Shown here: positions 1,795 to 64,000 of the stretch, piece after piece
How positions within the stretch are numbered: the stretch's first letter is position 1
Layout: each line of letters begins with the position of its first letter
Source: Escherichia phage T5
Direction: 5' to 3' (one strand)
Sequence record: NC_005859.1
DNA: 64,000 nucleotides
Translations under genes and position numbers: made by a program
The notes under the pieces: generated by a model
Told to the model about the DNA's origin: nothing
The model's database searches: none
What the model saw: only the letters and a program-made list of their open reading frames with translations

Positions 1795-4581
1795 GTGTTT
1801 TCTATCCTCCAAGGTCACGCCGGATTTTCTCGTGATTTAGCAACAGGTATTTGGCGAGAAATCAAAGCGGAAGATTATACCTTTGCCAAGCGATTCTCGA
1901 AAGAGCATCCAGAAGGTAAACCAGCTTCTATGCCCTTCAAATTTGATGTAATAGAAGAGCACGACCCACAAAGCCTTGCCGAAATGTTACCCCTCATGAG
2001 ACGTTTAACGTCTGACCCTCATATCGTTGCGGTGCGAGGTCGATGTCTCGCACCTAAAAATAATGTGCGACGTAAGAAAGGTAACTTTAATGTATCTAAT
2101 CCTAGTAATATTATTGCTATGGACGTGGATGGTATCCTAGATACCGGTGGGTATGACAAATTTAATCTTGTTGGTATGGCCCGCCACATTATTAAGATGT
2201 TGAATAGTATTAGTGAGGATATGTTTCCTCTTGATGCAGGGTTTATTGCTCATGCATCGTCTTCGGCTGGGCTAAAACCAGGTATCCGAATGCACTTAAT
2301 GCTAGAATCTAACGTCAAGGTAACTCAGGGTCAGCTAAAGTTCTTATTTACATCTATCAACGATAGTAGTAAGCAAAAATTTGGTTTTGATATTGCCGAC
2401 CTAGCTTATTATTCATCTGTCCAGCTCCACTATTTTGCCGACCCCTTATTTAGCGATGGTATTGTTGATCCGTTTAAAGCGGAGAGTAAGCCACGTCTGG
2501 TGTATGTTAAAGGTTCGAAAGTAAATTTGCCCAATAATCTGGTTGACTATGAAACAACTAGAGGGGAGTTTAAGGAAGAGTTTTATTCTTTACTTGATCA
2601 AATTAAAGGCAAAAAGATTGCTTCTGATAAAGTAGAAGAAACCATCAGCGAGTTAGAAGAGGCTGATGATGGAGTGTATTTGCGTATTATCCCCAAACTA
2701 TACCATAGAGCATTAGAGGATGGTGTTGATTTTGCATGGCTAGAACGTGAGATTAAACCAGCTTTATCTGAATATATTGCAACTAAAGATAACAGTCGTA
2801 ATATTCAAGATTACTTTAATAACGGTCGTAAGCAGGCTCTCAAAGCGTTTGTTAATAATTCTAAACGTGAGATTCCATTAAATCTGAAAGGTGTTCCACT
2901 TAAGAAATTAGAAGTGGATTCTCCACCAGAAGTTCCATACCTGAAGATTAACATTGTGCCCCCAAAAGGCCATATAACATTTGTTAAGGCAAGTCTTGGT
3001 ACTGGTAAAACTACGGCAGTAACTAAATGGCTGGACGCAGGTGTTCTTCCAGGCAACTTTTTAGCAGTTACAAATACTAGAGCACTGGTATCTTCAAATG
3101 CCAAGAAATTTAGTGCAGGACAATACGATAAGTCTGTAGATATGCTCAACTTTAAACGTGGAGCTATCGATCGTATGTCCACAACTATTCACTCTTTGCA
3201 TAAGTTCAAAAGTTTTATTGGGCAAATAGACACCATTTTTATTGATGAATGTGACGCTGTAATGAATGACCTATTATTCGCCCCTGTTGTTAAACAACGT
3301 CGCGAGTGTATTCAAGTTCTACGTGACATCCTTATGACAGCTAAGACTGTAATCTTATCCGATGGTGATATTAGTGCTGAGACGATTGAAGCATATGGTT
3401 CTCTAATTGATTTTGATAAACCAGTAGCATTTTATAATCATCACCGTAAAATGCTGTCAAAAGCACACGCTTATGAGTTTCCTGATGAATCCAGTATTTG
3501 GGTTGCACTTCAGACTTCTCTAGAGATGGGTGAGAAATCTATTCTAGTATCTGATTGTGGCCCGGATGAGCTGAATGAGAAGGGTATGGCACTGCGTCGT
3601 AATACGGGTGCGTTAGTTAAGGAAATCCATTCAAACTCCACCTCAGATGTGGATATTCGACGTATTCTGGATTATACAACTAATGAGCTAATTGATCAAC
3701 AAATTGATTGCTTATTATGTAGTCCATCCGTAACGAGTGGCGTTGACTTTAACTATTTCGATAATGTGTTTGTTATTACTAGAACCAGTAATCAAGCGCC
3801 AAACATGCGTTTCCAAGCAATCAGGCGCGACCGTGGTGCCCAGAACATCTATTATTTTATTGATAAATCTACGAGTGGATTCTCTGCAGGTTCTGAGCAA
3901 TATAATATTGATGAAGGTTGGCTGGAGTTAGCACAGCAATTATACGCACGTCGTAGAGAGCTGGAATCTAGAAACTATACTAGTACCTTACGTTATTATT
4001 TGCTTGATCAGGGTGCAACTATTGATATTTTCAGCGAAAGCTGGGGAACTATTGAAGGTGCTGGTAAAGAATATACAGAAGAGCGAATCAAAGCTATTCT
4101 GCATTCAACTCCAGATTATTGTGCCCCACGTCATGCAGATGCATATGAAGCTAAACTACTTCTTGTTCGCTATTATCATCTTGAGTCTATTAAAGATGTA
4201 ACAGTTGAGCATGTCGAACAATATATCAAAGATAAACCGAATGATCGAGCTGCATTCTTCCATAAGATGCACGAGATGTTCTGGGAAGATATTAAGAAGT
4301 GTTCAAATGTGACCATTAAACCATTCATAGAGGCTCTGAAAGGTAAGAAGAAAGACTTCTTCCTTAAAACAGGTCAGAGTGCCAACCCAAAATATGCTAG
4401 AATGTATCTTGGTATGATGGGTATTGGTAAGGATATGAACACTGAAAATATTGTAGACTGGTACAGAACCTATTGTAAAATCGAGTGTATGCCAATTCCT
4501 TTCAAATTCATGACAGAGGAAGAGAGGGCTATGGCAGAAGAAGTAATGTCCGAACTTGGAGCAACTAATGAAGATGCATAA
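1795..4581 (+). CDS. large P-loop ATPase, putative replication/origin-binding helicase-like protein
   Basis: 928-aa ORF, GTG start with RBS aggag; Walker A LGTGKTT; Walker-B-like FIDECD. Confidence 0.7.
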   Translation: MFSILQGHAGFSRDLATGIWREIKAEDYTFAKRFSKEHPEGKPASMPFKFDVIEEHDPQSLAEMLPLMRRLTSDPHIVAVRGRCLAPKNNVRRKKGNFNVSNPSNIIAMDVDGILDTGGYDKFNLVGMARHIIKMLNSISEDMFPLDAGFIAHASSSAGLKPGIRMHLMLESNVKVTQGQLKFLFTSINDSSKQKFGFDIADLAYYSSVQLHYFADPLFSDGIVDPFKAESKPRLVYVKGSKVNLPNNLVDYETTRGEFKEEFYSLLDQIKGKKIASDKVEETISELEEADDGVYLRIIPKLYHRALEDGVDFAWLEREIKPALSEYIATKDNSRNIQDYFNNGRKQALKAFVNNSKREIPLNLKGVPLKKLEVDSPPEVPYLKINIVPPKGHITFVKASLGTGKTTAVTKWLDAGVLPGNFLAVTNTRALVSSNAKKFSAGQYDKSVDMLNFKRGAIDRMSTTIHSLHKFKSFIGQIDTIFIDECDAVMNDLLFAPVVKQRRECIQVLRDILMTAKTVILSDGDISAETIEAYGSLIDFDKPVAFYNHHRKMLSKAHAYEFPDESSIWVALQTSLEMGEKSILVSDCGPDELNEKGMALRRNTGALVKEIHSNSTSDVDIRRILDYTTNELIDQQIDCLLCSPSVTSGVDFNYFDNVFVITRTSNQAPNMRFQAIRRDRGAQNIYYFIDKSTSGFSAGSEQYNIDEGWLELAQQLYARRRELESRNYTSTLRYYLLDQGATIDIFSESWGTIEGAGKEYTEERIKAILHSTPDYCAPRHADAYEAKLLLVRYYHLESIKDVTVEHVEQYIKDKPNDRAAFFHKMHEMFWEDIKKCSNVTIKPFIEALKGKKKDFFLKTGQSANPKYARMYLGMMGIGKDMNTENIVDWYRTYCKIECMPIPFKFMTEEERAMAEEVMSELGATNEDA

Positions 4582-5312: not shown

Positions 5313-5341
5313 TTGCTTTCAGGAAAATTTTTCTGTATAAT
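5313..5341 (+). promoter_or_regulatory. T5 early promoter, sequence matches PN25
   Basis: -35 TTGCTT 5313-5318, 17-bp spacer, -10 TATAAT 5336-5341, AT-rich upstream and ATAAATTTGAGAGAGGAG downstream; identical to my memory of PN25. Confidence 0.85.
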
Positions 5342-8585: not shown

Positions 8586-8728
8586 TACATAACCCTTTGC
8601 TACCCATCTACCATATCGGAATTATAAAGTGGTTATTGACATTTTCGCCGCTTAGGTATATACTATTATCATTCAGTTGAGGGATAGAAAGTTATGGCGA
8701 GGGTAAGCAAAGTTAGTTAAAATTGTAG

Positions 8729-16404: not shown

Positions 16405-17753
16405 AGGTTGTTATATCTAATAAAGCCTATTTCAAGCCCGATGATGAACTTTGGGATTATTGTAGTAAGCAAACCACTTATCACATAGAGACAATGACTA
16501 GTAAATACCCTATTATGTATAAGAATAGTGGTGTTGTTGCCAAAGAGATTAAGTGGATTCCTATTACGCGTCTGGACTTATTAGATGCTAAAGGAATAAA
16601 ATACGAATTAGTCGATAAACGCACACTAGCACCGGTAGATATACCAAAACCTAAGTTCAAGCTGCGTGAAGAAGATCAGCTTCCAATATACGAAGAATGC
16701 GATGATACCTGTATTATTAATGGTAAGCCTGGGTTTGGTAAAACTATCCTAGCACTTGCACTTGCGTATAAATTTGGCCAGAAAACTTTAGTAATCTGTA
16801 CGAATACATCCATTCGTGAAATGTGGGCGGCAGAAGTTCGTAAATGGTTTGGGTTTGAACCAGGTATCATAGGTTCTGGGAAATACAATATTGATCCGCC
16901 AATTGTAGTCAGTAATATTCAAACAGTGAATAAACATGCGAATAATCTTTCTAAAGTATTCGGTACTGTTATAGTTGATGAAGTTCACCATTGTGTGGCT
17001 ACAACTTTCACTAACTTCCTAGAAATATCATGTGCTCGCTATAAAATTGGACTATCCGGTACACTAAAACGAAAAGACGGTTTACAAGTTATGTTCAAAG
17101 ATTTCTTTGGATATAAGATATTTAGCCCGCCGGTTAATAATACTGTTGCACCTACAATCCATAGGTACTCCGTGCCTGTTGAGCTATCAGGAAACCAAAA
17201 CGTACCGTGGGCATTACGTGCTAACGATGTGTATAATCATCCTGAATATCGAGAGACTATTATAAACCTAGCACATTTATATGTGAATATGGGACATAAA
17301 GTACTCATTGTAAGTGATAGAACAGAGTTAATCCAAACAATACTAGAAGCTCTTACACAGCGTGGTGTTACAACCTATGAAATTATAGGAGCAACCCACT
17401 TAGATGACCGATTAAAAATTCAGGAAGATATAGCAAAAGGCGGGCCGTGTGTGCTTGCAGCAGCTCAAAGCATCTTCTCTGAAGGTATTTCACTTAACGA
17501 GCTGTCTTGTTTAATAATGGGAAGCCTCATTAATAATGAATCTCTCATTGAACAGCTTGCAGGCCGTGTTCAACGTATTGTCGAGGGTAAACTCGACCCA
17601 ATCGTTGTAGATCTAATTATGAAAGGTGGCACTGGGTTAAGGCAGGCTTCTGGACGTATGGCAGTATATCGTAACAACGGGTGGAAAACTATTACTATGA
17701 CTCCGGAGAAAGCAGTTCAATTAGCTAAAATTGCATTTGGCAACAGCTCATAA
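16401..17753 (+). CDS. SF2 helicase (DEAD/DEAH-like), T5 D10-like
   Basis: 450 aa; Walker A GKPGFGKT; Walker B DEVHH; helicase C-terminal region. Confidence 0.8.
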   Translation: MKVVISNKAYFKPDDELWDYCSKQTTYHIETMTSKYPIMYKNSGVVAKEIKWIPITRLDLLDAKGIKYELVDKRTLAPVDIPKPKFKLREEDQLPIYEECDDTCIINGKPGFGKTILALALAYKFGQKTLVICTNTSIREMWAAEVRKWFGFEPGIIGSGKYNIDPPIVVSNIQTVNKHANNLSKVFGTVIVDEVHHCVATTFTNFLEISCARYKIGLSGTLKRKDGLQVMFKDFFGYKIFSPPVNNTVAPTIHRYSVPVELSGNQNVPWALRANDVYNHPEYRETIINLAHLYVNMGHKVLIVSDRTELIQTILEALTQRGVTTYEIIGATHLDDRLKIQEDIAKGGPCVLAAAQSIFSEGISLNELSCLIMGSLINNESLIEQLAGRVQRIVEGKLDPIVVDLIMKGGTGLRQASGRMAVYRNNGWKTITMTPEKAVQLAKIAFGNSS

Positions 17754-48867: not shown

Positions 48868-50184
48868 TTATTTACCACGGGAAATAGAGTAAATTCCATA
48901 GCGGAGCGCATCACAAAGGTGAGAGTTAGCATCATGACGTGGTTTTTCACGTGATAATTTCTCTTCGCCTTCTTGGAAGTCCCACTTATAGTTCTGCAAT
49001 GCATGAATTAAGGAGGAACATGAAGCATCTACAATAATCTTGCCCTGCTGGAATAGCGCTTGCAGGCATGCTAGACCATCTAGGACAGACTTTTTAGCTG
49101 GAGCAGATGCAATTTCATGCTCATATGCTAAATCCTGGCGGAACTGAGCTGCTGCAGAGTCAACAAAAATACGATCAACTTTATAACGATCTATACAGTG
49201 CTGAATATAAGCAGCATGCTGAGCTGTAGTTTTCTCCGCCTGCTGGTACTCTTCTAATACATAGTAAGTATCCGTATCGTAATGATATTTAATAGTAAGA
49301 ACTGCTGTAGGATCACGATAACCAACGTCAATACCAAGCAACGTTTCGAATGCTTCATCATCTTTAAAGAAGTGACGCATACCTTTGAGGTCTTTAACAT
49401 GATCGATAGCATTAAAGGTATCAAAGATCTGGCCCTCGAATACAGAGAAGTCAGCCTCGTATTCTTGGCGGAAGTAGTTTTTACTAACTGTACGGCGTGC
49501 TTCCTCAATATCATTCAAGTCAGCACGTGGGTTATCACGATATGTACCATGAATAGATACCCAGTTAGGCAACGTATCATCAAATCCGTAGGCGTAAAAC
49601 TCTTTAAACCAGTTACCTCCACGAGGGGTGGAAATAAATAGAGCCTTAGAATTAGGTTTATCCAGAGTAGGACGCAGCTGAACCCTGAAAGCATCACCAC
49701 CCACATCGGAAATTGCCGCTTCGTCAAAGATGATAAAATCATATGAACGTCCAACTGCGGAGTCAGCCTGCGCCGCAGAAGCTAGTTTGAAGAGCGAGCC
49801 GTTTGCCAGCTCAATCTCTTTATCTTTGGCGTTTTCACGTTCGGTTTGTAGGCCATACTTCTTGATAAGACCACGAATCTGTGACCAACCAATGTTAGCC
49901 AGTGAGTAGTTAGGGGCAACTACTAGTACCTTCACATTAGGTTCCAGCAATTTTAGGAACCCAAGTGTGTATGCGATGAAGGATTTGCCTACACGACGTG
50001 ACACACACGCTGTTACAAAACGATGTCTAGGGTCCTCTAGGGCATTAATAATCGCTATTTGAGGACCATTAGGTGTAATACCTTCTTGTGCTAGTATTCC
50101 TGAAACAGGTAGACGAAAGAAACGTTTATCTATCCCGAAATCGATAACATCTACTGTATTAACGTAGGGTCTTGATACTTCCAT
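48868..50184 (-). CDS. terminase large subunit
   Basis: 438 aa; Walker A CVSRRVGKS; Walker B IIFDEAA; C-terminal RNaseH-like nuclease region. Confidence 0.85.
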   Translation of the reverse strand: MEVSRPYVNTVDVIDFGIDKRFFRLPVSGILAQEGITPNGPQIAIINALEDPRHRFVTACVSRRVGKSFIAYTLGFLKLLEPNVKVLVVAPNYSLANIGWSQIRGLIKKYGLQTERENAKDKEIELANGSLFKLASAAQADSAVGRSYDFIIFDEAAISDVGGDAFRVQLRPTLDKPNSKALFISTPRGGNWFKEFYAYGFDDTLPNWVSIHGTYRDNPRADLNDIEEARRTVSKNYFRQEYEADFSVFEGQIFDTFNAIDHVKDLKGMRHFFKDDEAFETLLGIDVGYRDPTAVLTIKYHYDTDTYYVLEEYQQAEKTTAQHAAYIQHCIDRYKVDRIFVDSAAAQFRQDLAYEHEIASAPAKKSVLDGLACLQALFQQGKIIVDASCSSLIHALQNYKWDFQEGEEKLSREKPRHDANSHLCDALRYGIYSISRGK

Positions 50185-50666
50185 TACTTCTTACCTCCAG
50201 TAGCTAGGGAAGTAATTAAGTCCATGTAGTTTTGATCCCCAGCTCCAGCAATAATATTATTCTGGATGTTGGTCTGGTTAGCTGGAGTACGGGCTGCTGC
50301 CTTCACTTTCTCCAGTTCTACCATCATTTTCATTTCTTCCATTTTCATTTTATGTGCTTTCCAGAGAATATCCATAATATCTTGGTCAGAACCCATGCCA
50401 GTTTCTTCCAGTTCCTCTAGTTTACGCTTGATAACTTCATCCAGAACACCAAATAAACGATCTCTGTTACGGAAACCACTCTCCATAAAAATATCATTTA
50501 AGTAGTTCTTAACTTCACTACGATTCATAATATCTCGAAAAGCAATTTCGGACATTCCAAGACTACGTGCGGCAGAAGGCACGTCGCTGCCACACTGTAA
50601 ATAAGCTTCAATCACATCCATCCCTTCAGGGGACATAAGATCTGGTACTAATACATCATTTGCCAT
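50184..50666 (-). CDS. putative terminase small subunit
   Basis: 160-aa ORF coupled upstream of terminase large subunit. Confidence 0.5.
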
Positions 50667-50676
50667 ATTTCCTCCT

Positions 50677-52599
50677 TTAGGTAAGGCGTTGAATTATAAG
50701 TTTAATATTAGGTAAGCATGCTTTCATGCCAATTATATTACTCATGGAAGAATCTAACCAAATAGAGATATTATTATTTCCATCATTTCTCATATAGTAA
50801 GTTAGAGTATAGTATCCTGTTTGCCCAACAGATCCAGGCAACCCAGATACCCAATATGGTGTTGGATTATACGCAGCAGCCTGCAATTTACAAGCGTTTA
50901 CAACTGTACCTTTTATAGTAAAGAATGGAACGTATTCTCCGGCTGGTAGAGATAGTATTTGATGCAGTTTTTTATTTATGGTATTCCCCCCTATCCTAAA
51001 TCTACTATCACCGTATTCTGCCCCTTGGGATAACATTTCTGTAGGATTGAAGCAACCAATACCGCCTGCGGATAGCCATGTATCATCTATAAACTCCATA
51101 GTACATACAATAGCACCATTTCTACTGCTATTAAGATCTAACCCCACAGTACCAACATGTACAGATCCATTACCCTGGAATACTATGTTTCCAGATAATA
51201 TAGTGCTACCACTACCTCCCAGGAGTCTTAATGGTAATAAATTCTCACTCCAAACGTCGCCATAGTTATTACCTATTTTTGGTGGATTACTAGATACATA
51301 CCAAGATGCTGAAGGTAAAAAATTATAAATACTAACAACATTAGCATGTAAGCCACCAACATTACCACCTTTAATACTAGGAGCATTATTGCTCTCTGTG
51401 GTTGGTAGCCCAAATGTTGCTATACCTGATATTCCTGTTGAGGGAGAATCTTTACTTAGATTACAACCAACATCACGAAAATCAGCTCTGTTACCAACGT
51501 TGAAATTTTTCTCTATAAAATTAATAAATTTCCAAGATGTATTATTAACATTAACCCCTTTAATAATAAATTCTCTTGGGCTGAGCTTAATGTCATTACC
51601 GTTAAATAACCCACCGTCTATATTATACCCAGAACCATTGTATACTAGGTTAGTAACATACCATGTAATTTTAGATGGATAAATGCCTAAATGTTCGCTG
51701 TAGATACCTATAGGTCCATTGGCAGAATCATTAGGATCTCCCATACTTTCCCAGTAAGCATAGTTAGTAGGATCAGCACGTGCGAAACCTACGGAATACT
51801 TTGGTGATTCTGGATTACTGGGGTTATACGTAAAGTTAAGGGCTCCAGAGCTCGAAGCTCCCTGCACAGCCCCACCGGTAGTATAGTTTGGTCCTTCCAT
51901 ACCATAAAGAACCCTATTACAAGACCTACCACGAACGTATATAGCATTAAAACCAAAGTTCCTAGCTCCTGGGTGTCTAACATAATCACTAGGGATAGTT
52001 AAGGTTCCTGCATCAGCCACCACATAACCGGAACCACTCCACGCAGATTTGTAAAGAGCAGCACCACCTAAGTACATTGCACTTGATGCAAACCCCCTTC
52101 TCCCACTAAAAGCACCGAACATATGTTGACATCCTGTGCCATCTCTTAACTTTTGTGGTATAGTGCCACTAGTACCCGTATTAAAATAACCTACATCAAG
52201 TGAAAGATCGGCACTAGCTGTTATTTGTGTTTTTAATCCACCCTGAGACATAATCTGAGGATTTATAATACCATAGGCTTTTGCACCTACTCCCATAGAC
52301 ATGCCAGATAGCATATGTCTAGAGCCATCAGAAAACTCAATCTCTGTTAATACAACTCTATTAGGGTCATTATTATGTAGCTGTGTAACTCTACTAGGCA
52401 TTTCAGACCAGTAATAGTCACCAGCCCCCTGATCCAATCTTAATCCAGTAGAATGAGTTTCCGTTATAATTACGTGCGACATATCTGAATGAAAGATGGT
52501 TTGGGAATCAGGGTTGATATGTTGGTTAGTATCTCCACCACTACCCCTTCGCAGTGAGAGTATAGATTTGTTATTTAGCTTGCCAGCGAAAAAACTCAT
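50677..52599 (-). CDS. oad: receptor-binding tail protein (pb5-like, FhuA-binding)
   Basis: 640 aa, same length as T5 pb5; Gly/Asn-rich beta protein; adjacent to llp. Confidence 0.75.
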
Positions 52600-52618
52600 A
52601 AGTTCTCCAAAAATTTAG

Positions 52619-52647
52619 TTGCTTATACTGCCATAATTCTGTATAAT
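52619..52647 (+). promoter_or_regulatory. sigma70-type early promoter for llp
   Basis: -35 TTGCTT, 17-bp spacer, -10 TATAAT, PN25-like TAGTATTATAAATT downstream. Confidence 0.6.
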
Positions 52648-52678
52648 AGTATTATAAATTAAATAGGGGAGAATGTAA

Positions 52679-52912
52679 ATGAAAAAATTATTTTTAGCTA
52701 TGGCAGTGGTACTTCTTTCGGCTTGCTCTACTTTTGGACCTAAAGATATTAAATGTGAGGCATACTATATGCAGGATCATGTGAAATATAAGGCTAATGT
52801 TTTTGATAGGAAAGGGGATATGTTTTTGGTGTCACCAATTATGGCCTATGGATCTTTCTGGGCCCCCGTAAGCTACTTTACCGAAGGAAATACATGCGAG
52901 GGAGTTTTCTAA
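52679..52912 (+). CDS. llp: lytic-conversion lipoprotein Llp (receptor-blocking superinfection exclusion)
   Basis: 77 aa; signal peptide with lipobox LLSAC; same length and position as T5 Llp. Confidence 0.8.
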   Translation: MKKLFLAMAVVLLSACSTFGPKDIKCEAYYMQDHVKYKANVFDRKGDMFLVSPIMAYGSFWAPVSYFTEGNTCEGVF

Positions 52913-53075
52913 GTAAAAACCACCTTAGTAACCATCACCACTTAAGATGAACCTAGTGCAGAATTAGTTCAGGATACCACACAAGACACTATGGAAGGTG
53001 TGATGGGAATATTTACACTAATCACTGCAATTGCTAGAGTATTTTAAATACCACACTTATAGGAGCATGAAAGAT

Positions 53076-53204
53076 ATGTCAAACAAAAGAAAGAGCAGAC
53101 GTGGAGAAGTGTACGATAGCTGGATTAATAGCTTTGGATTAGGAACTATTTTATTCTTTATTTTCGTAGGTTTTTGGTTAGCAGCTATGGCGGGGTGGAT
53201 TTAA
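53076..53204 (+). CDS. small membrane protein (42 aa)
   Basis: hand-translated; RBS aggag 10 nt upstream; basic N-terminus then hydrophobic helix; not in ORF track (<60 aa). Confidence 0.45.
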   Translation: MSNKRKSRRGEVYDSWINSFGLGTILFFIFVGFWLAAMAGWI

Positions 53205-53311
53205 TGGAATGGGTAATTATTGCGTTGCTAGGGGTTGTGATTATTGGACAATGTATTTTAGATAATCACTTAGCTAGAATTGAAACTTTATTAACGGAGA
53301 AGCGTAAATGA
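53204..53311 (+). CDS. small membrane protein (35 aa)
   Basis: hand-translated MEWVIIALLGVVIIGQ...; ATG overlaps upstream stop (TAATG). Confidence 0.4.
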   Translation: MEWVIIALLGVVIIGQCILDNHLARIETLLTEKRK

Positions 53312-53502
53312 TGGAAGTAGTAGCTATAATAACAGTAATACTAGTCTGGGCAATTTTCATTGCTTCTTGCACCGTGTACGTTCGCCTAAAAACTCTAGAA
53401 GCTCAAGTAAAACAACAACAATTTGCTATAGAAAAATTAGTAGAACTCCAACGTTGTGATAGCATTCGTATTCTGCAAATTGAGAGGGAATTAGATGTTT
53501 AG
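53308..53502 (+). CDS. small membrane protein (64 aa)
   Basis: N-terminal transmembrane helix then coiled region; start overlaps upstream stop. Confidence 0.5.
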   Translation: MMEVVAIITVILVWAIFIASCTVYVRLKTLEAQVKQQQFAIEKLVELQRCDSIRILQIERELDV

Positions 53503-53740
53503 CATTATAGTTGCTTTTATTATCGGAATAATCGCGGGAGTTTTCGGAATGACTGCGGCTATTAACAAGCATCGTAAATACATTGCGGAAGTATCGCGGG
53601 AGATTGCGGAAAGGGAGCGGAAGTTTGACGAAAAACGTGCGGAGTTTGAGCGGGAGTGGTCGGACGGTTCTCGGGCGTCGCGGAAGAGATTCCGTGAGTT
53701 CAGACCAAAATACGGAGTTGATGACCATTCTATGCGCTAA
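53495..53740 (+). CDS. small membrane protein (81 aa)
   Basis: N-terminal transmembrane helix then charged ER-rich tail; start overlaps upstream stop. Confidence 0.5.
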   Translation: MFSIIVAFIIGIIAGVFGMTAAINKHRKYIAEVSREIAERERKFDEKRAEFEREWSDGSRASRKRFREFRPKYGVDDHSMR

Positions 53741-53850
53741 TTGGGAAATCTCGAAATTTCATAAGATTACACATGAAGGTGTGTCCACTGCCTCCGGCGA
53801 AAATACTTAGTCTGCTAACCGCCACCCCCGTTACTATTACCATGCTAACT

Positions 53851-53887
53851 GTTTCACCCTGCAACCATTTTAATTGCAGGGTGAAAC
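53851..53887. other. perfect 14-bp-stem hairpin at late / pre-early junction
   Basis: gtttcaccctgcaa - ccattttaa - ttgcagggtgaaac; no adjacent U-tract. Confidence 0.6.
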
Positions 53888-53904
53888 AATTTCAACTTTA
53901 ATTA

Positions 53905-54639
53905 TTACGCAACTTTTAATTTCTCAATATATTGTTGCGGGCTGCAACTATATTCTGCGCGTTCTTCTTCGGTCATACCTTCCCAACATAATTGCAGGCG
54001 GTCGGCTAGGAACTGATAATCATTATCATCCTCAAGAGATTCATCAATAAAGGTTTCACCTATCAATGTCACGCCGATTGATAGAATATCATTAACGGCT
54101 TGTGCGTCCAGCGTTTTAAATCCGTATGACGCTGCCGCTGATAGCACGCCTTTATGATCATCAATCATTGTAAAATCAGCGTTCGGATATAATTGTTTGA
54201 ATAGCCCAAAATAGTAACTTTTATAAACTGCGTCTTTGCTGTGGTATATCTCGCTAACTTTATCAGCCTCAAAATATTTGTGTAGTGTATCGCGGGAAAA
54301 TACACGGATATTACTATCACCACGACCGCGCAACCCTTGTTTACGCAAATAATAATAGTCCGACTTGCTCATTAGTCGAGCGGTGCAAATAATGTTTAAA
54401 GTATTTGCGTCATTCATGCACTGGCGCATATATGTAACAAGGGGCAATAGTGTATCTTGCATTATTAAATCATGTTTGCAGGCTTCATTTTTATACTTAT
54501 TTAAATCTAAATTGCCCTCGCTATCAAAGCAAGGCGCTACACGATGAAACGAATTAATGATAGTGCCGTCCAGATCCCAAATCATGACGCGGGAAATATG
54601 CGGGAAATTACGGGTAATATTCGTTTTAACTTGATTCAT
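53905..54639 (-). CDS. dmp: 5'-deoxyribonucleotidase (HAD family), Dmp-like
   Basis: 244 aa; HAD motif I IWDLDGT; terminal-repeat-like position next to A1. Confidence 0.75.
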   Translation of the reverse strand: MNQVKTNITRNFPHISRVMIWDLDGTIINSFHRVAPCFDSEGNLDLNKYKNEACKHDLIMQDTLLPLVTYMRQCMNDANTLNIICTARLMSKSDYYYLRKQGLRGRGDSNIRVFSRDTLHKYFEADKVSEIYHSKDAVYKSYYFGLFKQLYPNADFTMIDDHKGVLSAAASYGFKTLDAQAVNDILSIGVTLIGETFIDESLEDDNDYQFLADRLQLCWEGMTEEERAEYSCSPQQYIEKLKVA

Positions 54640-54719
54640 TTTGTTACGTTCTCCATTTGAGGGATTAGATTAATTCAGCATTACCCGCTATTAAATAGCG
54701 GGTAATAATAAATTAACTA

Positions 54720-55115
54720 TTAAAGGCCATACGCTAGCGCATCAGCGATAAAACTAACATCCTCGCCCGATACGCTGGAACGAATGCCAGCGCATGTATA
54801 CACCTTTGCGCTCATTAGCTGATCATCAAGGCAAGCGGGGCAAGGTGCGACTACTGCGAAAGCTAAACCGGATTTTACCGCGTCAATAATGATTGTTTCC
54901 TGTTTCATAGTGTCAACATAAACACCTTTTGCTTTAATATGGCTTGTTAGTTTGCCCTGCATATATGCAAACGTTGTAACTTGCATCGCGTCATTGAAAT
55001 CTAATAGCTCATCAATAACGTGACCGGCCTCGACGTGATAACGCTGACCATTAGAATAAACCAGAACAATAGAAGACTGAGCGCGATCGAATGGGATACG
55101 GTTAGATTTAGCCAT
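54720..55115 (-). CDS. hypothetical pre-early protein
   Basis: 131-aa ORF between dmp and A1. Confidence 0.55.
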   Translation of the reverse strand: MAKSNRIPFDRAQSSIVLVYSNGQRYHVEAGHVIDELLDFNDAMQVTTFAYMQGKLTSHIKAKGVYVDTMKQETIIIDAVKSGLAFAVVAPCPACLDDQLMSAKVYTCAGIRSSVSGEDVSFIADALAYGL

Positions 55116-55151
55116 GTTTATAACTCCAATTAGTTTAATAAGGGATTTAAT

Positions 55152-55430
55152 TTATTTGCTAGCTTCAAGACTTACAACAAAAGCGAGATTTGTTTCTTTC
55201 CATACGTCAGGAATATCATTTTCCTGTAAATGGTCTTTCGCTTCATACTCATTTTCAAAAGAATAAAAATCGCCGGACTCAATTATATAAATATGCCCGT
55301 TTAGTTCATTTTGATAAATATAACAATTATTATCTTTTAAATTGCGGTATACAGTACCATGCCGTAAAACATCAAGCGACCATGTATCAGCGGTGTTTTT
55401 CATGCTGGGAAGATTAATTTTAATAGCCAT
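55152..55430 (-). CDS. hypothetical pre-early protein
   Basis: 92-aa ORF. Confidence 0.5.
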   Translation of the reverse strand: MAIKINLPSMKNTADTWSLDVLRHGTVYRNLKDNNCYIYQNELNGHIYIIESGDFYSFENEYEAKDHLQENDIPDVWKETNLAFVVSLEASK

Positions 55431-55486
55431 TTAATTTAGCTCCTGTAATAGCGGCTATATCTCAAGCCGCTAGGGGAATAATTTAA

Positions 55487-57157
55487 TTACGCAAAGAATT
55501 TACCATTCTTAAAGTCAATCAAAGTGCGTTGACCGTTTGCATAGGTAATAATATGCGTTTGAGTCCAGCTAGACGCGCCAACGTTGTAACCCATGTCCAG
55601 ACTACCAGTCACGCCAGCGGTATAAACGCCGCCGTAAATGCTGGCGGTGTGGGTGTGTCCGGTGTTTAATTTGCCCAATTTCTTAAACTGTTTCGGGTTG
55701 CCACGGCTCCCGTTAATGCCGTTGTGACCGTGTACGCCGCATTCAATGCCTGCAATCTTGAAAGATTGGTCAGTGGTCAGGAAAATGGCGTTAAATTCAC
55801 AGCCTGCAACCTTGCGCAGCGCATAATCAAGCACGTTAAAAGTATCGTCTTTTTCTGCAATAGCTCCATAAATCGCAGCATTCAGGCGGTGATATAGTTC
55901 CGCGTTTGCTGGGTCGTCTTTAATGTTAGCATTACGATCATCTAACCAGCGGGATAGCGCCAGATCATGATTAGATTCAACAATGATTGTTTGAGAAAAA
56001 TCACGCTCCATTGATTCCAGTACGCGCCCCGTATCGATAAGATCATCTAATACCTTATCACGTCCGGCGGCATATTGTTTCGCTAGGAATACGCCAGATG
56101 CGCGGTTGTGATGGTTGCGTGATGTAAAATCATGCACGTCGTGTACAAACTGATATTTTGGTTTAAGAATATCAACAAGCCCGTAGGTGTCACCATGCCC
56201 CCAAGACGCAGCGGCGCACTCCTCATCTAATTTTTCAGCGTGAATGTCGCCATATTGTAAACCTAAAACGTGCCCCGTTGTTTCATAACATCCGGCAGGA
56301 GTGGCGCAAGTATTCAAATCATAAAACACGCCGCTCTCGTCCATCGTTTCAAGCTGGCGCACAAAAAACTCACCGTCCTCGTCAAACTCAACAATAAGCG
56401 CACCGAAGTTATGCAGCGCCTCGGCCTTTTGTCCTGCTTTCTGCTGGATGTAATTTTTTAGCGTTGCCGTTCCGGTTGAATACATACGGCGCACAATTTC
56501 ACCTTTTAAAGCTGGCACGCTTTCGGCGGTGATTTTAGCCGCTCCAATTGCTAGACCTTCAAGATTCAGCGCGGTTGCAGTTTCAGCGAATCCAGAAAGC
56601 GGATAATCTGCGGTGGGTAAAACGTTAATTTCAGCCATGAAAGCAAATCGGCGATTATTTAAAAACACGTTTTTATTGCAGATATATTTGTCAAATGCGG
56701 AATCGTATCTGATACCGTCGGCGCCCTCGCCATTTTGAAAACCGTTTTTGTTATAGATAAACTTGCTAACCAGCAAATCAGCGCCGATAAATTGGGCGTA
56801 TTGTTCAAGTGAGGCTAAAAAGTTTTTATGCGGGAACGTATTATTCTGAATCGATGTAATAATAAAGCGTTTACCTTGTTTTACTTCCCATTGCTCAACC
56901 GTGCTAGAAACAATCCCCGCCGCTTCTGGGCGCTCATCGTTTTTAATGGCTTTTGCTACTTTCGCCGCTTTCGGTTTCGCTGGTTTATTTGCTTCCAGCC
57001 AGTCACAAATTGCGGTAGAGTGTTTTGTTGTATCGTAAACCATTTTTGAAATATCGTCGCAAACTTCCAATTTAGTAGCGCGCAGACGTTTACCGTAGAA
57101 ATTAAAGTCAGCGGCCATTTTCAGGATAACGGTTTGTTTTTCTGCGGAAATAACCAT
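55487..57157 (-). CDS. A1: A1-like pre-early protein with metallophosphoesterase domain
   Basis: 556 aa, same length as T5 A1; calcineurin-like motifs GDIH, GDTYG, ESNHD, GHNG, HTHT in C-terminal half. Confidence 0.75.
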   Translation of the reverse strand: MVISAEKQTVILKMAADFNFYGKRLRATKLEVCDDISKMVYDTTKHSTAICDWLEANKPAKPKAAKVAKAIKNDERPEAAGIVSSTVEQWEVKQGKRFIITSIQNNTFPHKNFLASLEQYAQFIGADLLVSKFIYNKNGFQNGEGADGIRYDSAFDKYICNKNVFLNNRRFAFMAEINVLPTADYPLSGFAETATALNLEGLAIGAAKITAESVPALKGEIVRRMYSTGTATLKNYIQQKAGQKAEALHNFGALIVEFDEDGEFFVRQLETMDESGVFYDLNTCATPAGCYETTGHVLGLQYGDIHAEKLDEECAAASWGHGDTYGLVDILKPKYQFVHDVHDFTSRNHHNRASGVFLAKQYAAGRDKVLDDLIDTGRVLESMERDFSQTIIVESNHDLALSRWLDDRNANIKDDPANAELYHRLNAAIYGAIAEKDDTFNVLDYALRKVAGCEFNAIFLTTDQSFKIAGIECGVHGHNGINGSRGNPKQFKKLGKLNTGHTHTASIYGGVYTAGVTGSLDMGYNVGASSWTQTHIITYANGQRTLIDFKNGKFFA

Positions 57158-63533: not shown

Positions 63534-63756
63534 GTGCAAATCCGACATTTGCCCCCATGGATTACGCGTGGGCGTGTATGTGCAAATCCGACAATTTTTG
63601 GTAGTGTGCGAATCCGACCCGAAAAATTTTTATAGTGTGCAAATCCGACAATGAATTTTCCCAAAAACTCCAGCAATCACGAACTGCGTTCGAATCCTGT
63701 GGAATTAGCTAGAGTATGTGCAAATCCGACATGTGTTGAGATGTGCGAATCCGACA
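63534..63756. repeat. iteron-like array: six copies of 14-bp GTGC(A/G)AATCCGAC(A/C)
   Basis: copies at 63534, 63580, 63606, 63646, 63718, 63743 with irregular 25-72 bp spacing, all same orientation, non-coding. Confidence 0.8.
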
Positions 63757-63892
63757 AGATTTTTGTGACTTCGATGGGAGGGTGTGTGATTGTATGGGTT
63801 TGAGGGGAAGATGAGAGAGCGAGAGAAATTTGGGAGGCTAGAAGGATATGGGCGCAGGATTGGTGCGGAGCACCTGATTTGCGGGGATTTTG

Positions 63893-63936
63893 GGGAAGAG
63901 TTGAGATAATTTGGGAAGATTTGAGATAGGTGCAGA
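63893..63936. repeat. purine-rich tandem repeat (TTTGGGGAAGAGTTGAGATA-like, 2 copies)
   Basis: within a strongly G+A-skewed plus-strand tract 63770-63940. Confidence 0.5.
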
Positions 63937-64000
63937 AAAAGTAAAATTTTATTAGCTAAAGGGGGCAAAATAGCTTGACAAGTGAAAATTTCTGTGGCTC

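Follow-up and report, generated by a model that had tools for sequence, protein, structure and literature searches.

The lipoprotein Cor of phages T1, phi80 and related phages, a small protein that inactivates FhuA, is responsible for superinfection exclusion at this receptor, and Llp of phage T5 acts likewise. To our knowledge, cor genes do not divergently adjoin a gene for a receptor-binding protein (RBP) as llp does. FhuA is the receptor bound by the T5 tail protein pb5, and structures of both pb5 and Llp bound to FhuA have been solved. Llp, a small lipoprotein like Cor but with low sequence similarity to it, inactivates FhuA: loops EL7 and EL8 are folded inward and pb5 binding is lost (PMC9586334), and FhuA-dependent infection is blocked upon llp expression (PMC9586334 and references therein). 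According to the title of Decker et al. 1994, cited in PMC9586334, llp is "expressed early during infection". The BF23-type module is also a known system, going by the 2006 work to which PMC10644984, PMC4728585 and PMC8624392 refer; the T5 and BF23-type Llp proteins are non-homologous (PMC10644984).

The pb5/oad-llp locus has been in GenBank since 1994, with both of its promoters annotated. All coordinates below refer to a window of 64,000 nucleotides from Escherichia phage T5 (NC_005859.1). The segment 50400-54000 matches T5 AY587007.1 at 100% identity; that record names the two genes pb5 and llp. The locus is 99.9-100% identical to GenBank X75922 ("Bacteriophage T5 llp, oad, dmp genes"), positions 82-110 of the X75922.1 record corresponding to 52619-52647 of the window (offset 52537). 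Both records already carry the two genes, the two promoters, orf1-orf4, the inverted repeat and the 3' end of dmp, so that the initial annotation of this DNA was right to present the arrangement as known for T5. The divergent pb5-llp pair is thus real, ordinary and already known, and the sole addition to the X75922 and AY587007 annotation is that orf1-4 are explicitly proposed as members of the llp transcription unit. With a probability of roughly 0.7, this is the T5 host-recognition and lytic-conversion locus, with overlapping divergent promoters and an llp-ORF148-151 unit that ends at a hairpin at 53850-53888.

The divergent gene pair

50677..52599, minus strand: pb5 (oad), the T5 receptor-binding tail protein, 640 aa (AY587007; PHROG and PDB matches)
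52679..52912, plus strand: llp, precursor of the lytic-conversion (receptor-blocking) lipoprotein, 77 aa (AY587007, X75922, PHROG, PDB)

The initial annotation had placed both open reading frames, as well as the promoter at 52619-52647 considered below, exactly. Residues 1-640 of the minus-strand product match the PDB entries 8B14_B and 8A8C_B over the full length (1470 bits), and the PHROG match is phrog_4815, "receptor binding tail protein" (E 3.7e-260). A full-length match to the experimentally characterised pb5 establishes this product as a receptor-binding protein; the earlier wording, a "pb5-like" gene, named the right kind of protein but was too weak, as the gene is T5 pb5 itself. It heads a leftward run of genes that continues with terS and terL.

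Llp matches the PDB entries 8A60_B (residues 1-77) and 7QJF_A (17-77), as well as phrog_1119, "Cor superinfection exclusion protein" (E 1.1e-19). The N-terminus of the protein, MKKLFLAMAVVLLSAC, is a signal peptide with the lipobox LSAC and the lipobox cysteine at position 16 (Cys16). The sequence match combined with these features assigns the protein to the Llp/Cor-type lipoproteins.

The divergence of the two genes agrees with the AY587007 and X75922 annotation and is a hallmark of such modules (PMC8624392). The layout, in which RBP and lipoprotein genes diverge from a short common control region, is found in T5 (79 bp) and in 11/11 relatives. BF23-type modules have a different type of RBP and Llp but resemble T5 in the divergent RBP and lipoprotein genes with a 79-85 bp intergenic region, in a rightward TTGCTT-17-TATAAT promoter, and in the same four small ORFs and dmp-proximal hairpin downstream.

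Overlapping promoters in the intergenic region

52619..52647, plus strand: P-llp, a promoter of the T5 early family ("promoter llp" in X75922; "putative early promoter T5P41" in AY587007)
52651..52679, minus strand: P-oad, the leftward pb5 promoter (the oad promoter of X75922; "putative late promoter T5P42" in AY587007)
52642..52656, no strand: 15-bp palindrome TATAAT-AGT-ATTATA, composed of two -10 hexamers, read from the sequence

P-llp consists of a -35 element TTGCTT (52619-24), a 17-nt spacer and a -10 element TATAAT (52642-47), flanked by AAAAATTTAG upstream (52609-18) and by AGTATT-ATAAATT downstream; the predicted start site is at ~52654. The same bases are labelled as the llp promoter in X75922, and their assignment to the T5 early type is borne out by a motif search. 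The pattern TTGCT-N17-19-TATAAT occurs at seven sites in the window, all on the plus strand, against 0.50 expected, a 14-fold enrichment over shuffled sequence (0/100 shuffles reached seven). The family is defined by TTGCTw, 17-18 nt and TATAAT, and all seven sites share the flanks AAAAATTTnAG-TTGCTw ... TATAAT-A..ATAAATT. P-llp belongs to this family by its -35, spacer, -10, upstream A/T tract and ATAAAT-like start region. The term "consensus" promoter used for it in the initial annotation holds for the T5 early-promoter family and fails for sigma-70: TTGCTT matches TTGACA at only 3/6 positions, which is why a generic sigma-70 scan omits P-llp.

We take this family to be the classical strong T5 early promoters, including PN25, P25 and P26, that are used in expression vectors. 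P-llp is like them in the TTGCTT -35, the 17-nt spacer, the TATAAT -10, AAAAATTT upstream and ATAAATT downstream, the nearest classical early promoter being the window site 5313, which reads ...CTGTATAATAGATTCATAAATT. All of the other six family sites lie in the early replication-gene region, five of them inside the annotated early promoters T5P33, 34, 35, 37 and 38, the sixth preceding the DNA polymerase gene; P-llp, unlike these, stands by itself at the right-hand end of the unique region, ~35 kb away, and, unlike classical early promoters, it overlaps a divergent promoter. An "ATATT" discriminator element has been reported for T5 early promoters (Klimuk et al. 2020). P-llp lacks it, since TATAAT-AGTATT gives ATAGT at that position, and so does the 5313 site (TATAAT-AGATTC), whereas TATAAT-ATT or TATAAT-ATA is found at the remaining five; P-llp therefore falls into a two-member sub-type. 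The P-llp -10 is invariant in 12/12 T5-like phages, and TTGCyT-17-TATAAT is present in all 12, even in BF23-type modules, in which the RBP and llp genes are unlike those of T5.

The opposing promoter, P-oad, has a -35 element TTTACA (52679-74), a 17-nt spacer and a -10 element TATAAT (52656-51), with 11/12 sigma-70 consensus positions, and is the top promoter-like match of the sigma-70 scan in 50000-55500; at 17-nt spacing, six sites in the window have no more than one mismatch, against 0.83 expected. Its -35 overlaps the llp start codon. P-oad drives pb5, a late-class gene, and the genes to its left, the terminase genes first.

Two overlapping divergent sigma-70 promoters thus occupy the 79-bp pb5-llp intergenic region. 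Each of the predicted start sites (~52654 on the plus strand, ~52644 on the minus strand) lies inside the -10 of the opposite promoter, so that both promoters would melt the same DNA; given this and the -10 palindrome, RNA polymerase would be expected at only one promoter at a time, and occupancy of P-llp and P-oad would be mutually exclusive. The palindrome is retained in 9/9 T5-type modules and absent from 3/3 BF23-type modules. A leftward-promoter equivalent was sought in the BF23-type intergenic regions and none was found; these regions, unlike that of T5, contain neither a near-consensus leftward promoter nor the palindromic -10 pair. Mutual exclusion therefore fails as a genus-wide idea and would apply to T5-type modules only.

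Four small membrane protein genes and the terminal hairpin

52913..53075, plus strand: untranslated gap of 163 nt, without an intrinsic terminator
53076..53204, plus strand: ORF148 (orf1), 42 aa, basic N-terminus and C-terminal transmembrane segment (phrog_8596, E 3.8e-32)
53204..53311, plus strand: ORF149 (orf2), 35 aa, N-terminal transmembrane segment; start overlaps the ORF148 stop, TAATG (phrog_6369)
53308..53502, plus strand: ORF150 (orf3), 63-64 aa, N-terminal transmembrane segment and charged C-terminal region; ATG overlaps the ORF149 stop, ATGA (phrog_5851)
53495..53740, plus strand: ORF151 (orf4), 81 aa, N-terminal transmembrane segment and highly charged C-terminal tail (phrog_6447, "membrane protein")
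53850..53888, no strand: 15-bp perfect hairpin, dG -23.2 kcal/mol ("putative rho-independent terminator" in AY587007)

The small membrane-protein genes that the initial annotation had pointed out downstream of llp are indeed present at 53076-53740, each with one hydrophobic segment, and ORF151 overlaps ORF150 by 8 nt. A tblastn search recovers all four in 11/11 relatives (71-100% identity), where the gene order of the unit is also retained, and each belongs to a PHROG family of its own (E 1e-26 to 1e-47). ORF148 shows 74-100% identity in 11/11 relatives and is 100% identical in BF23 and HdH2, despite RBP/llp modules unrelated to that of T5. Annotators differ on this gene, which is absent from several records; its invariant start is the ATG at 53076, whereas AY587007 annotates the TTG at 53031. 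A Pfam search with the four small proteins yields nothing above the cut-off (for ORF151, LapA_dom reaches 22.5 bits vs a cut-off of 28), and a homologue search with ORF151 retrieves only Tequintavirus-like proteins and contigs, without functional names.

The hairpin is located 70-106 nt into the right terminal repeat and is flanked by ORF151 and dmp, which converge on it. It is stable and contains GC pairs (fold z -3.0), and comparison among relatives shows covariation: 6/15 pairs are changed on both sides, and 88.7% of the cells are paired vs 29-46% in slid controls. It is the strongest hairpin of the llp-ORF151 unit and the first strong one downstream, after ORF151. A canonical U-tract, sought 3' of the hairpin on both strands, is absent; the tail reads AAUUUCAACUUU on the plus strand and is U-poor on the minus strand. 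The terminator scan omits this hairpin because the loop is 9 nt and there are fewer than five T in any 8-nt window. Even so, the hairpin is probably a bidirectional 3' end or terminator. The Davison preprint on the terminal repeat mentions neither the hairpin nor llp.

Extent of the llp transcript

53012..53040, plus strand: candidate internal promoter, TTTACA, 17 nt, TGc-TAGAGT (9/12 match with TG)

Co-transcription of llp and ORF148-151 from P-llp is plausible, is consistent with the sequence and appears to be the most likely arrangement. It is favored by the terminator-free gap, the ORF overlaps (TAATG, ATGA and 8 nt), the gene order shared by 11/11 relatives and the covarying hairpin after ORF151. 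Two scans for an intrinsic terminator in 52913-53075 of T5 and in the matching gap of 11 relatives found none, so that no such terminator separates llp from ORF148, as expected of a single operon. The P-llp transcript would accordingly run on through the 163-nt gap and through the translationally coupled ORF148-151 (53076-53740), each for a tiny single-pass membrane protein, to the hairpin that it shares with dmp, a convergent pre-early gene. The possibility that the gap contains a known structured RNA can be rejected: an Rfam scan of 52400-54100 gives nothing above threshold, the two eukaryotic matches being at chance level and far below the gathering scores.

A literature search for transcript maps of T5 or T5-like phages found none for this locus. 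The nearest data, weak and indirect, are RNA-seq counts for the T5-like phage Bas33 at 20 min, from a library whose strandedness is not stated: 219/127 TPM for the llp homologue, and 162/137 and 462/408 TPM for downstream homologues. When second-step transfer is blocked, the TPM of all these homologues fall to approximately zero. The TPM of the ORF150 homologue is ~2-3-fold that of the llp homologue, in a set where neighbouring tiny genes that overlap have erratic counts (from 0.5 to 462 TPM). This excess would fit an extra promoter; the alternation of ~1 and ~460 TPM in adjacent overlapping tiny genes looks like a read-assignment artefact.

Such an extra promoter is the core of the strongest alternative, in which ORF148-151 have a promoter of their own in the gap (-10 at 53035-53040, start near 53047), besides or instead of read-through from P-llp. 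An alignment of 12 phages shows that the 5' two-thirds of the gap diverges among relatives, with insertions in some (~90 nt in HK6), and that the last ~50 nt are retained, conservation beginning exactly at TAGAnT. TAGAnT-ATT precedes the ORF148 start codon by 36-41 nt in 12/12 phages; A53036, G53037 and T53040 are invariant, among them the key -10 positions A(2) and T(6), and T53035 and A53038 are nearly so. In most relatives the sequence is TAGAAT-ATT, which reproduces the "ATATT" discriminator of Klimuk et al., a predicted promoter is annotated in the equivalent gap of the BF23 record, and downstream genes exceed llp in the Bas33 counts. Against this promoter, conservation is limited to the -10-like TAGAnT (53035-40) and the ATT next to it and does not extend to the -35, and BF23-type phages lack the TG. 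Matches of this quality (9/12) are about as frequent as chance would give (23 vs 19.7 expected), the element has neither the TTGCTw -35 nor the A-tract of the T5 early family, and no promoter is annotated at this position in AY587007. The conserved block might just as well represent the 5'UTR and ribosome-binding region of ORF148, or the edge of the swapped RBP-llp module. On balance, a separate promoter is a serious possibility, with the odds somewhat against it.

Alternatively, the llp transcript might stop in the gap, through Rho or a weak hairpin at the llp 3' end, so that llp would be monocistronic and ORF148-151 would be expressed from another promoter only. The gap is a long untranslated stretch, and its first 78 nt have a C/G ratio of 1.82, between the 90th and 95th percentiles of the window; this moderately C-rich, G-poor stretch is not a strong Rho-loading signal, yet Rho might act on it. 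At 52864-52902, an irregular hairpin is followed by GUUUUCU, and versions of it exist in SUT_E1520, HK6 and slur09, with dG from -8.8 to -11.6 kcal/mol (the latter in slur09). In T5, however, this hairpin reaches only -6.1 kcal/mol over 39 nt and lies inside translated llp sequence, scans of the 12 phages turned up no canonical terminator, the C/G ratio is below the 95th percentile, and folding of the gap RNA gives no more structure than that of shuffled sequence (z = +0.67). Termination in the gap thus seems decidedly improbable. Finally, that ORF148-151 are not genes but mere spacer between llp and the terminal repeat, as their very short length (35-81 aa) and the discordant annotation of ORF148 could suggest, is hardly credible given their recovery in every relative, the separate PHROG families, the single clear hydrophobic segment in each, the overlapping start and stop codons, and the identity of ORF148 in BF23 and HdH2.

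Implications for lytic conversion in T5-like phages

P-llp would fire once second-step DNA transfer brings the region into the cell, yielding Llp, a periplasm-facing outer-membrane lipoprotein that binds FhuA and protects against superinfection as well as against loss of progeny on cell debris. The two promoters of the T5-type modules would melt the same ~14 bp on opposite strands, a simple mutual exclusion built into the site, which makes an early/late toggle possible. Should the separate gap promoter prove real, regulation of the small membrane proteins would be at least partly uncoupled from that of llp.

A more speculative proposal, which we consider rather unlikely, is that ORF148-151 are early proteins made from the llp transcript that together would add to lytic conversion a second, receptor-independent layer, located at the inner membrane. 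Such a layer would explain the linkage of these genes to the RBP/llp module whatever the receptor, FhuA-type or BF23-type. Its possible actions include blocking of incoming DNA and protection of the envelope. In a bolder variant, read-through past the hairpin, which has no U-tract, might produce RNA antisense to dmp and A1, only after second-step transfer, and so aid pre-early shut-off.

The locus is a reference example of a phage that pairs a receptor-binding protein with a receptor-blocking protein, and in itself adds little to that picture. Early production of ORF148-151 alongside Llp, if it occurs, would however make these proteins clear candidates for additional roles at the host envelope or in superinfection.

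The pb5-llp locus

Between 50400 and 54000, the sequence shows 100.0% identity to Escherichia phage T5 AY587007.1 (108232-111832 of that record) and 99.9% identity to AY692264.1. At this locus, the window coordinate equals the AY587007 coordinate minus 57832; the offset is 57819 at the window start and 57752 at its end (1-400 and 63600-64000 compared), so that the window represents a different T5 record with indels of about 13 and 80 nt, and the right end of the window lies inside the terminal repeat, at most a few bases from where the genome ends on the right.

Genes and promoters of the pb5-llp locus
50677-52599, minus strand: pb5 (oad), receptor-binding protein gene, 640 aa; 'tail protein Pb5' in AY587007
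52679-52912, plus strand: llp, 77 aa; 'lytic conversion lipoprotein precursor' in AY587007
52619-52647, plus strand: P-llp, the llp promoter, TTGCTT, 17 nt, TATAAT
52679-52651, minus strand: P-oad, the pb5 promoter, TTTACA-17-TATAAT, 11 of 12 consensus positions

The PDB chains 8B14_B and 8A8C_B match pb5 across all 640 residues, and PHROGs assigns it to 'receptor binding tail protein' (E 3.7e-260). For Llp, the matches are 8A60_B, 7QJF_A and the PHROG 'Cor superinfection exclusion protein' (E 1.1e-19), and its N-terminus, MKKLFLAMAVVLLSAC, consists of a signal peptide and a lipobox cysteine. The initial annotation described a divergent gene pair with an early promoter for llp, an arrangement said to be known for T5. 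All its coordinates are exact, including the promoter bases, and the genes and both promoters are indeed present in AY587007 and in X75922.1 ('Bacteriophage T5 llp, oad, dmp genes'). With llp at record position 142 set to window position 52679, 'promoter llp' of X75922 (82-110) falls on 52619-52647 and 'promoter oad' on 52651-52679, on the opposite strand; in AY587007, these sites are named 'putative early promoter T5P41' and 'putative late promoter T5P42', respectively. The divergent layout is a hallmark of modules that combine a receptor-binding protein (RBP) gene with llp (PMC8624392), which are exchanged as units among T5-like phages (PMC10644984; PMC4728585), and the mechanism of Llp has been solved structurally: Llp binds FhuA, the loops EL7 and EL8 are folded inward, and pb5 binding is prevented (PMC9586334). 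The locus is a reference case, and only the proposal that ORF148-151 form an operon with llp goes beyond published knowledge. Thus, the observation is confirmed; support for the interpretation is partial, since co-transcription, the only part of it that is new, is something that we infer.

The llp promoter belongs to a T5 early family

The 64-kb window contains seven copies of the motif TTGCT-N17-19-TATAAT, all on the plus strand, compared with a shuffle mean of 0.50 (seven reached in 0 of 100 shuffles). The description of P-llp as a 'consensus early promoter' therefore holds with respect to this T5 family but not to the sigma-70 consensus: its -35 hexamer agrees with TTGACA at 3 of 6 positions, which is why a generic sigma-70 scan omits it. 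Alignment with flanks reveals a common layout in all seven: AAAAATTTnAG comes first, then TTGCTw, 17-18 nt of spacer, TATAAT and, further downstream, an ATAAATT-like start region. Five of the six other sites lie inside annotated early promoters (T5P33, 34, 35, 37 and 38), which precede early genes including two DNA ligase genes and D10/D11; the sixth is upstream of the DNA polymerase gene. The nearest family member is the site at 5313 (CTG-TATAAT-AGATTC-ATAAATT vs CTG-TATAAT-AGTATT-ATAAATT in P-llp). An 'ATATT' discriminator is reported for T5 early promoters (Klimuk et al.); this element is missing from P-llp and the 5313 site, which accordingly form a two-member sub-type, and the other five sites have ATT or ATA right after the -10. 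The P-llp element is kept in 11 related phages: all nine T5-type modules (T5 included) contain TTGCyT-17-TATAAT-AGTATTATAAATT, and the three BF23-type modules, the other kind of RBP/llp module, have an intergenic region of different sequence, yet retain TTGCTT-17-TATAAT-AGAyTCATAAATT. The early expression of llp is taken from the literature: PMC9586334 cites Decker et al. 1994, whose title states it.

Small membrane proteins downstream of llp

ORF148-151 (orf1-orf4 of X75922)
53076-53204, plus strand: ORF148, 42 aa; basic N-terminus, C-terminal hydrophobic segment
53204-53311, plus strand: ORF149, 35 aa; N-terminal hydrophobic segment
53308-53502, plus strand: ORF150, 63-64 aa; N-terminal hydrophobic segment, charged C-terminal region
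53495-53740, plus strand: ORF151, 81 aa; N-terminal hydrophobic segment, charged C-terminal region

Each of these proteins contains one hydrophobic segment (Kyte-Doolittle mean 2.2-2.7 over 19 residues), and the neighboring genes overlap, by TAATG (ORF148/149), ATGA (ORF149/150) and 8 nt (ORF150/151). A Pfam search with the four proteins finds nothing above the cut-off; each belongs to a separate PHROG family (E 1e-26 to 1e-47) labeled as unknown function or 'membrane protein'. All four are found in 11 of 11 relatives with 71-100% identity, ORF148 of BF23 and HdH2, which carry the other type of RBP/llp module, is 100% identical to that of T5, and ORF151 homologs occur in Tequintavirus-like contigs only. 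All four are genuine genes of the conserved backbone rather than receptor-specific ones. In the 12-phage alignment, ORF148 invariably starts with the ATG at 53076 (42 aa, matching X75922 orf1), and the TTG start at 53031 in AY587007 (57 aa) is not supported; an upstream ATG at 53069 is missing in S131 and phiLLS. In several relatives, ORF148 is present in the DNA and unannotated in the record.

An extra 51-aa gene lies between ORF148 and ORF149 in SUT_E1520 (locus L005, 3105-3260), HK6 (L009, 3187-3339) and Bas33 (bas33_0190); it is a paralog of the 35-aa ORF149 (35-37% identity), indicating a tandem duplication. An HNH homing-endonuclease gene at the ORF151 3' end in slur09 (L010, 3598-4095), SP15 (L013, 3907-4443) and Bas33 (bas33_0186) takes the place of the last ~14 codons, with the match limited to residues 1-67, so that the C-terminal tail of ORF151 appears dispensable.

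Probable read-through from llp into ORF148-151

The gap between llp and ORF148 (52913-53075, 163 nt) contains no terminator-like site in a consensus terminator scan, no hairpin followed by a T-run in T5 or 11 relatives, and nothing above threshold in an Rfam scan; its RNA fold is no better than that of shuffled sequence (z +0.67). The sole long inverted repeat within 52550-53950 (53847-53891) comes after ORF151. Both findings argue for co-transcription of ORF148-151 with llp by read-through, to which we assign a probability of about 0.65; one point against it is that the downstream hairpin lacks a canonical U-tract on either strand.

Hairpin downstream of ORF151
53850-53888: 15-bp stem, dG -23.2 kcal/mol

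This hairpin, a putative terminator in the AY587007 annotation, is located between the convergent ORF151 and dmp, 70-106 nt into the right terminal repeat (start 53782), and a copy is therefore expected at the extreme left genome end. In relatives, the hairpin is identical, differs by a C:G to U:A exchange, or is replaced by one of different sequence in the same register. In the alignment of loci L003-L012, pairing is retained in 88.7% of cells vs 29-46% with the partner slid; changes on both sides affect 6 of 15 pairs and come from only two or three lineages. The hairpin may be a bidirectional terminator, an RNA-stabilizing 3' hairpin, or an element with a role at the repeat boundary.

A contribution of an internal promoter in the gap, which is compatible with read-through, is a tentative possibility. 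The phages share the final ~50 nt of the gap and diverge in the rest; the conserved block starts with a -10-like TAGAnT (53035-53040; positions 2, 3 and 6 identical in all 12 phages) and continues with ATT, the T5 copy is accompanied by a TG and, 17 nt upstream, by TTTACA (9 of 12 matches), and the BF23 record has a predicted promoter in the equivalent gap. However, matches of this class occur at chance frequency (23 vs 19.7 expected), and conservation does not extend to the -35. HK6 has a ~90-nt insertion just upstream of the conserved block (L009 ~2900-3060; window ~52990), which shows that large changes are tolerated in the 5' part of the gap. A monocistronic llp is unlikely given the gap scans and fold, even though Rho might act on the first 78 nt past llp (C/G 1.82, between the 90th and 95th percentiles of the window) and the llp 3' end forms a weak irregular hairpin followed by GUUUUCU (dG -6.1 in T5, up to -11.6 in slur09).

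Expression in the T5-like phage Bas33 (per-gene TPM at 20 min, replicate 1 / replicate 2)
llp homolog: 219 / 127
ORF148 homolog: 0.8 / 1.0
extra ORF149 paralog: 162 / 137
ORF149 homolog: 0.5 / 1.2
ORF150 homolog: 462 / 408
ORF151 homolog: 22 / 13

With second-step DNA transfer blocked, all these values are close to zero, which shows that the region is transcribed and not pre-early; they are uninformative on transcript continuity, being erratic for overlapping tiny genes and coming from a paper silent on library strand-specificity. That ORF148-151 are early membrane proteins co-expressed with Llp, with a receptor-independent role in lytic conversion, appears improbable.

Overlapping divergent promoters

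P-oad is the top-scoring promoter-like site within 50000-55500. The leftward pb5-terS-terL transcript must begin in or near the 79-bp intergenic region because llp, on the right, runs rightward. TTGACA-N17-TATAAT with at most one mismatch occurs 6 times in the window vs 0.83 expected (~7x shuffles). The further near-consensus sites are at 17259, 34289 and 42186 (minus strand) and at 8636 and 17737 (plus strand); the former three, on the same strand as P-oad, may be late promoters. The comparison weakly suggests that T5 early and late promoters differ in the -35 hexamer, TTGCTw vs TTGACA-like.

The -10 hexamers of P-llp and P-oad form a 15-bp palindrome (52642-52656, TATAAT-AGT-ATTATA), perfect except for the central base and present in 9 of 9 T5-type modules and 0 of 3 BF23-type modules. 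With start sites predicted 7 nt past each -10 (~52654, plus; ~52644, minus), each start lies inside the opposite -10, so that the same ~14 bp would be melted in either open complex and occupancy of the two promoters would be mutually exclusive. A search of the BF23-type intergenic regions finds no comparable leftward promoter, and hence the mechanism would not be general. At the pb5-llp intergenic region of T5, such exclusive occupancy would constitute a simple early/late toggle.
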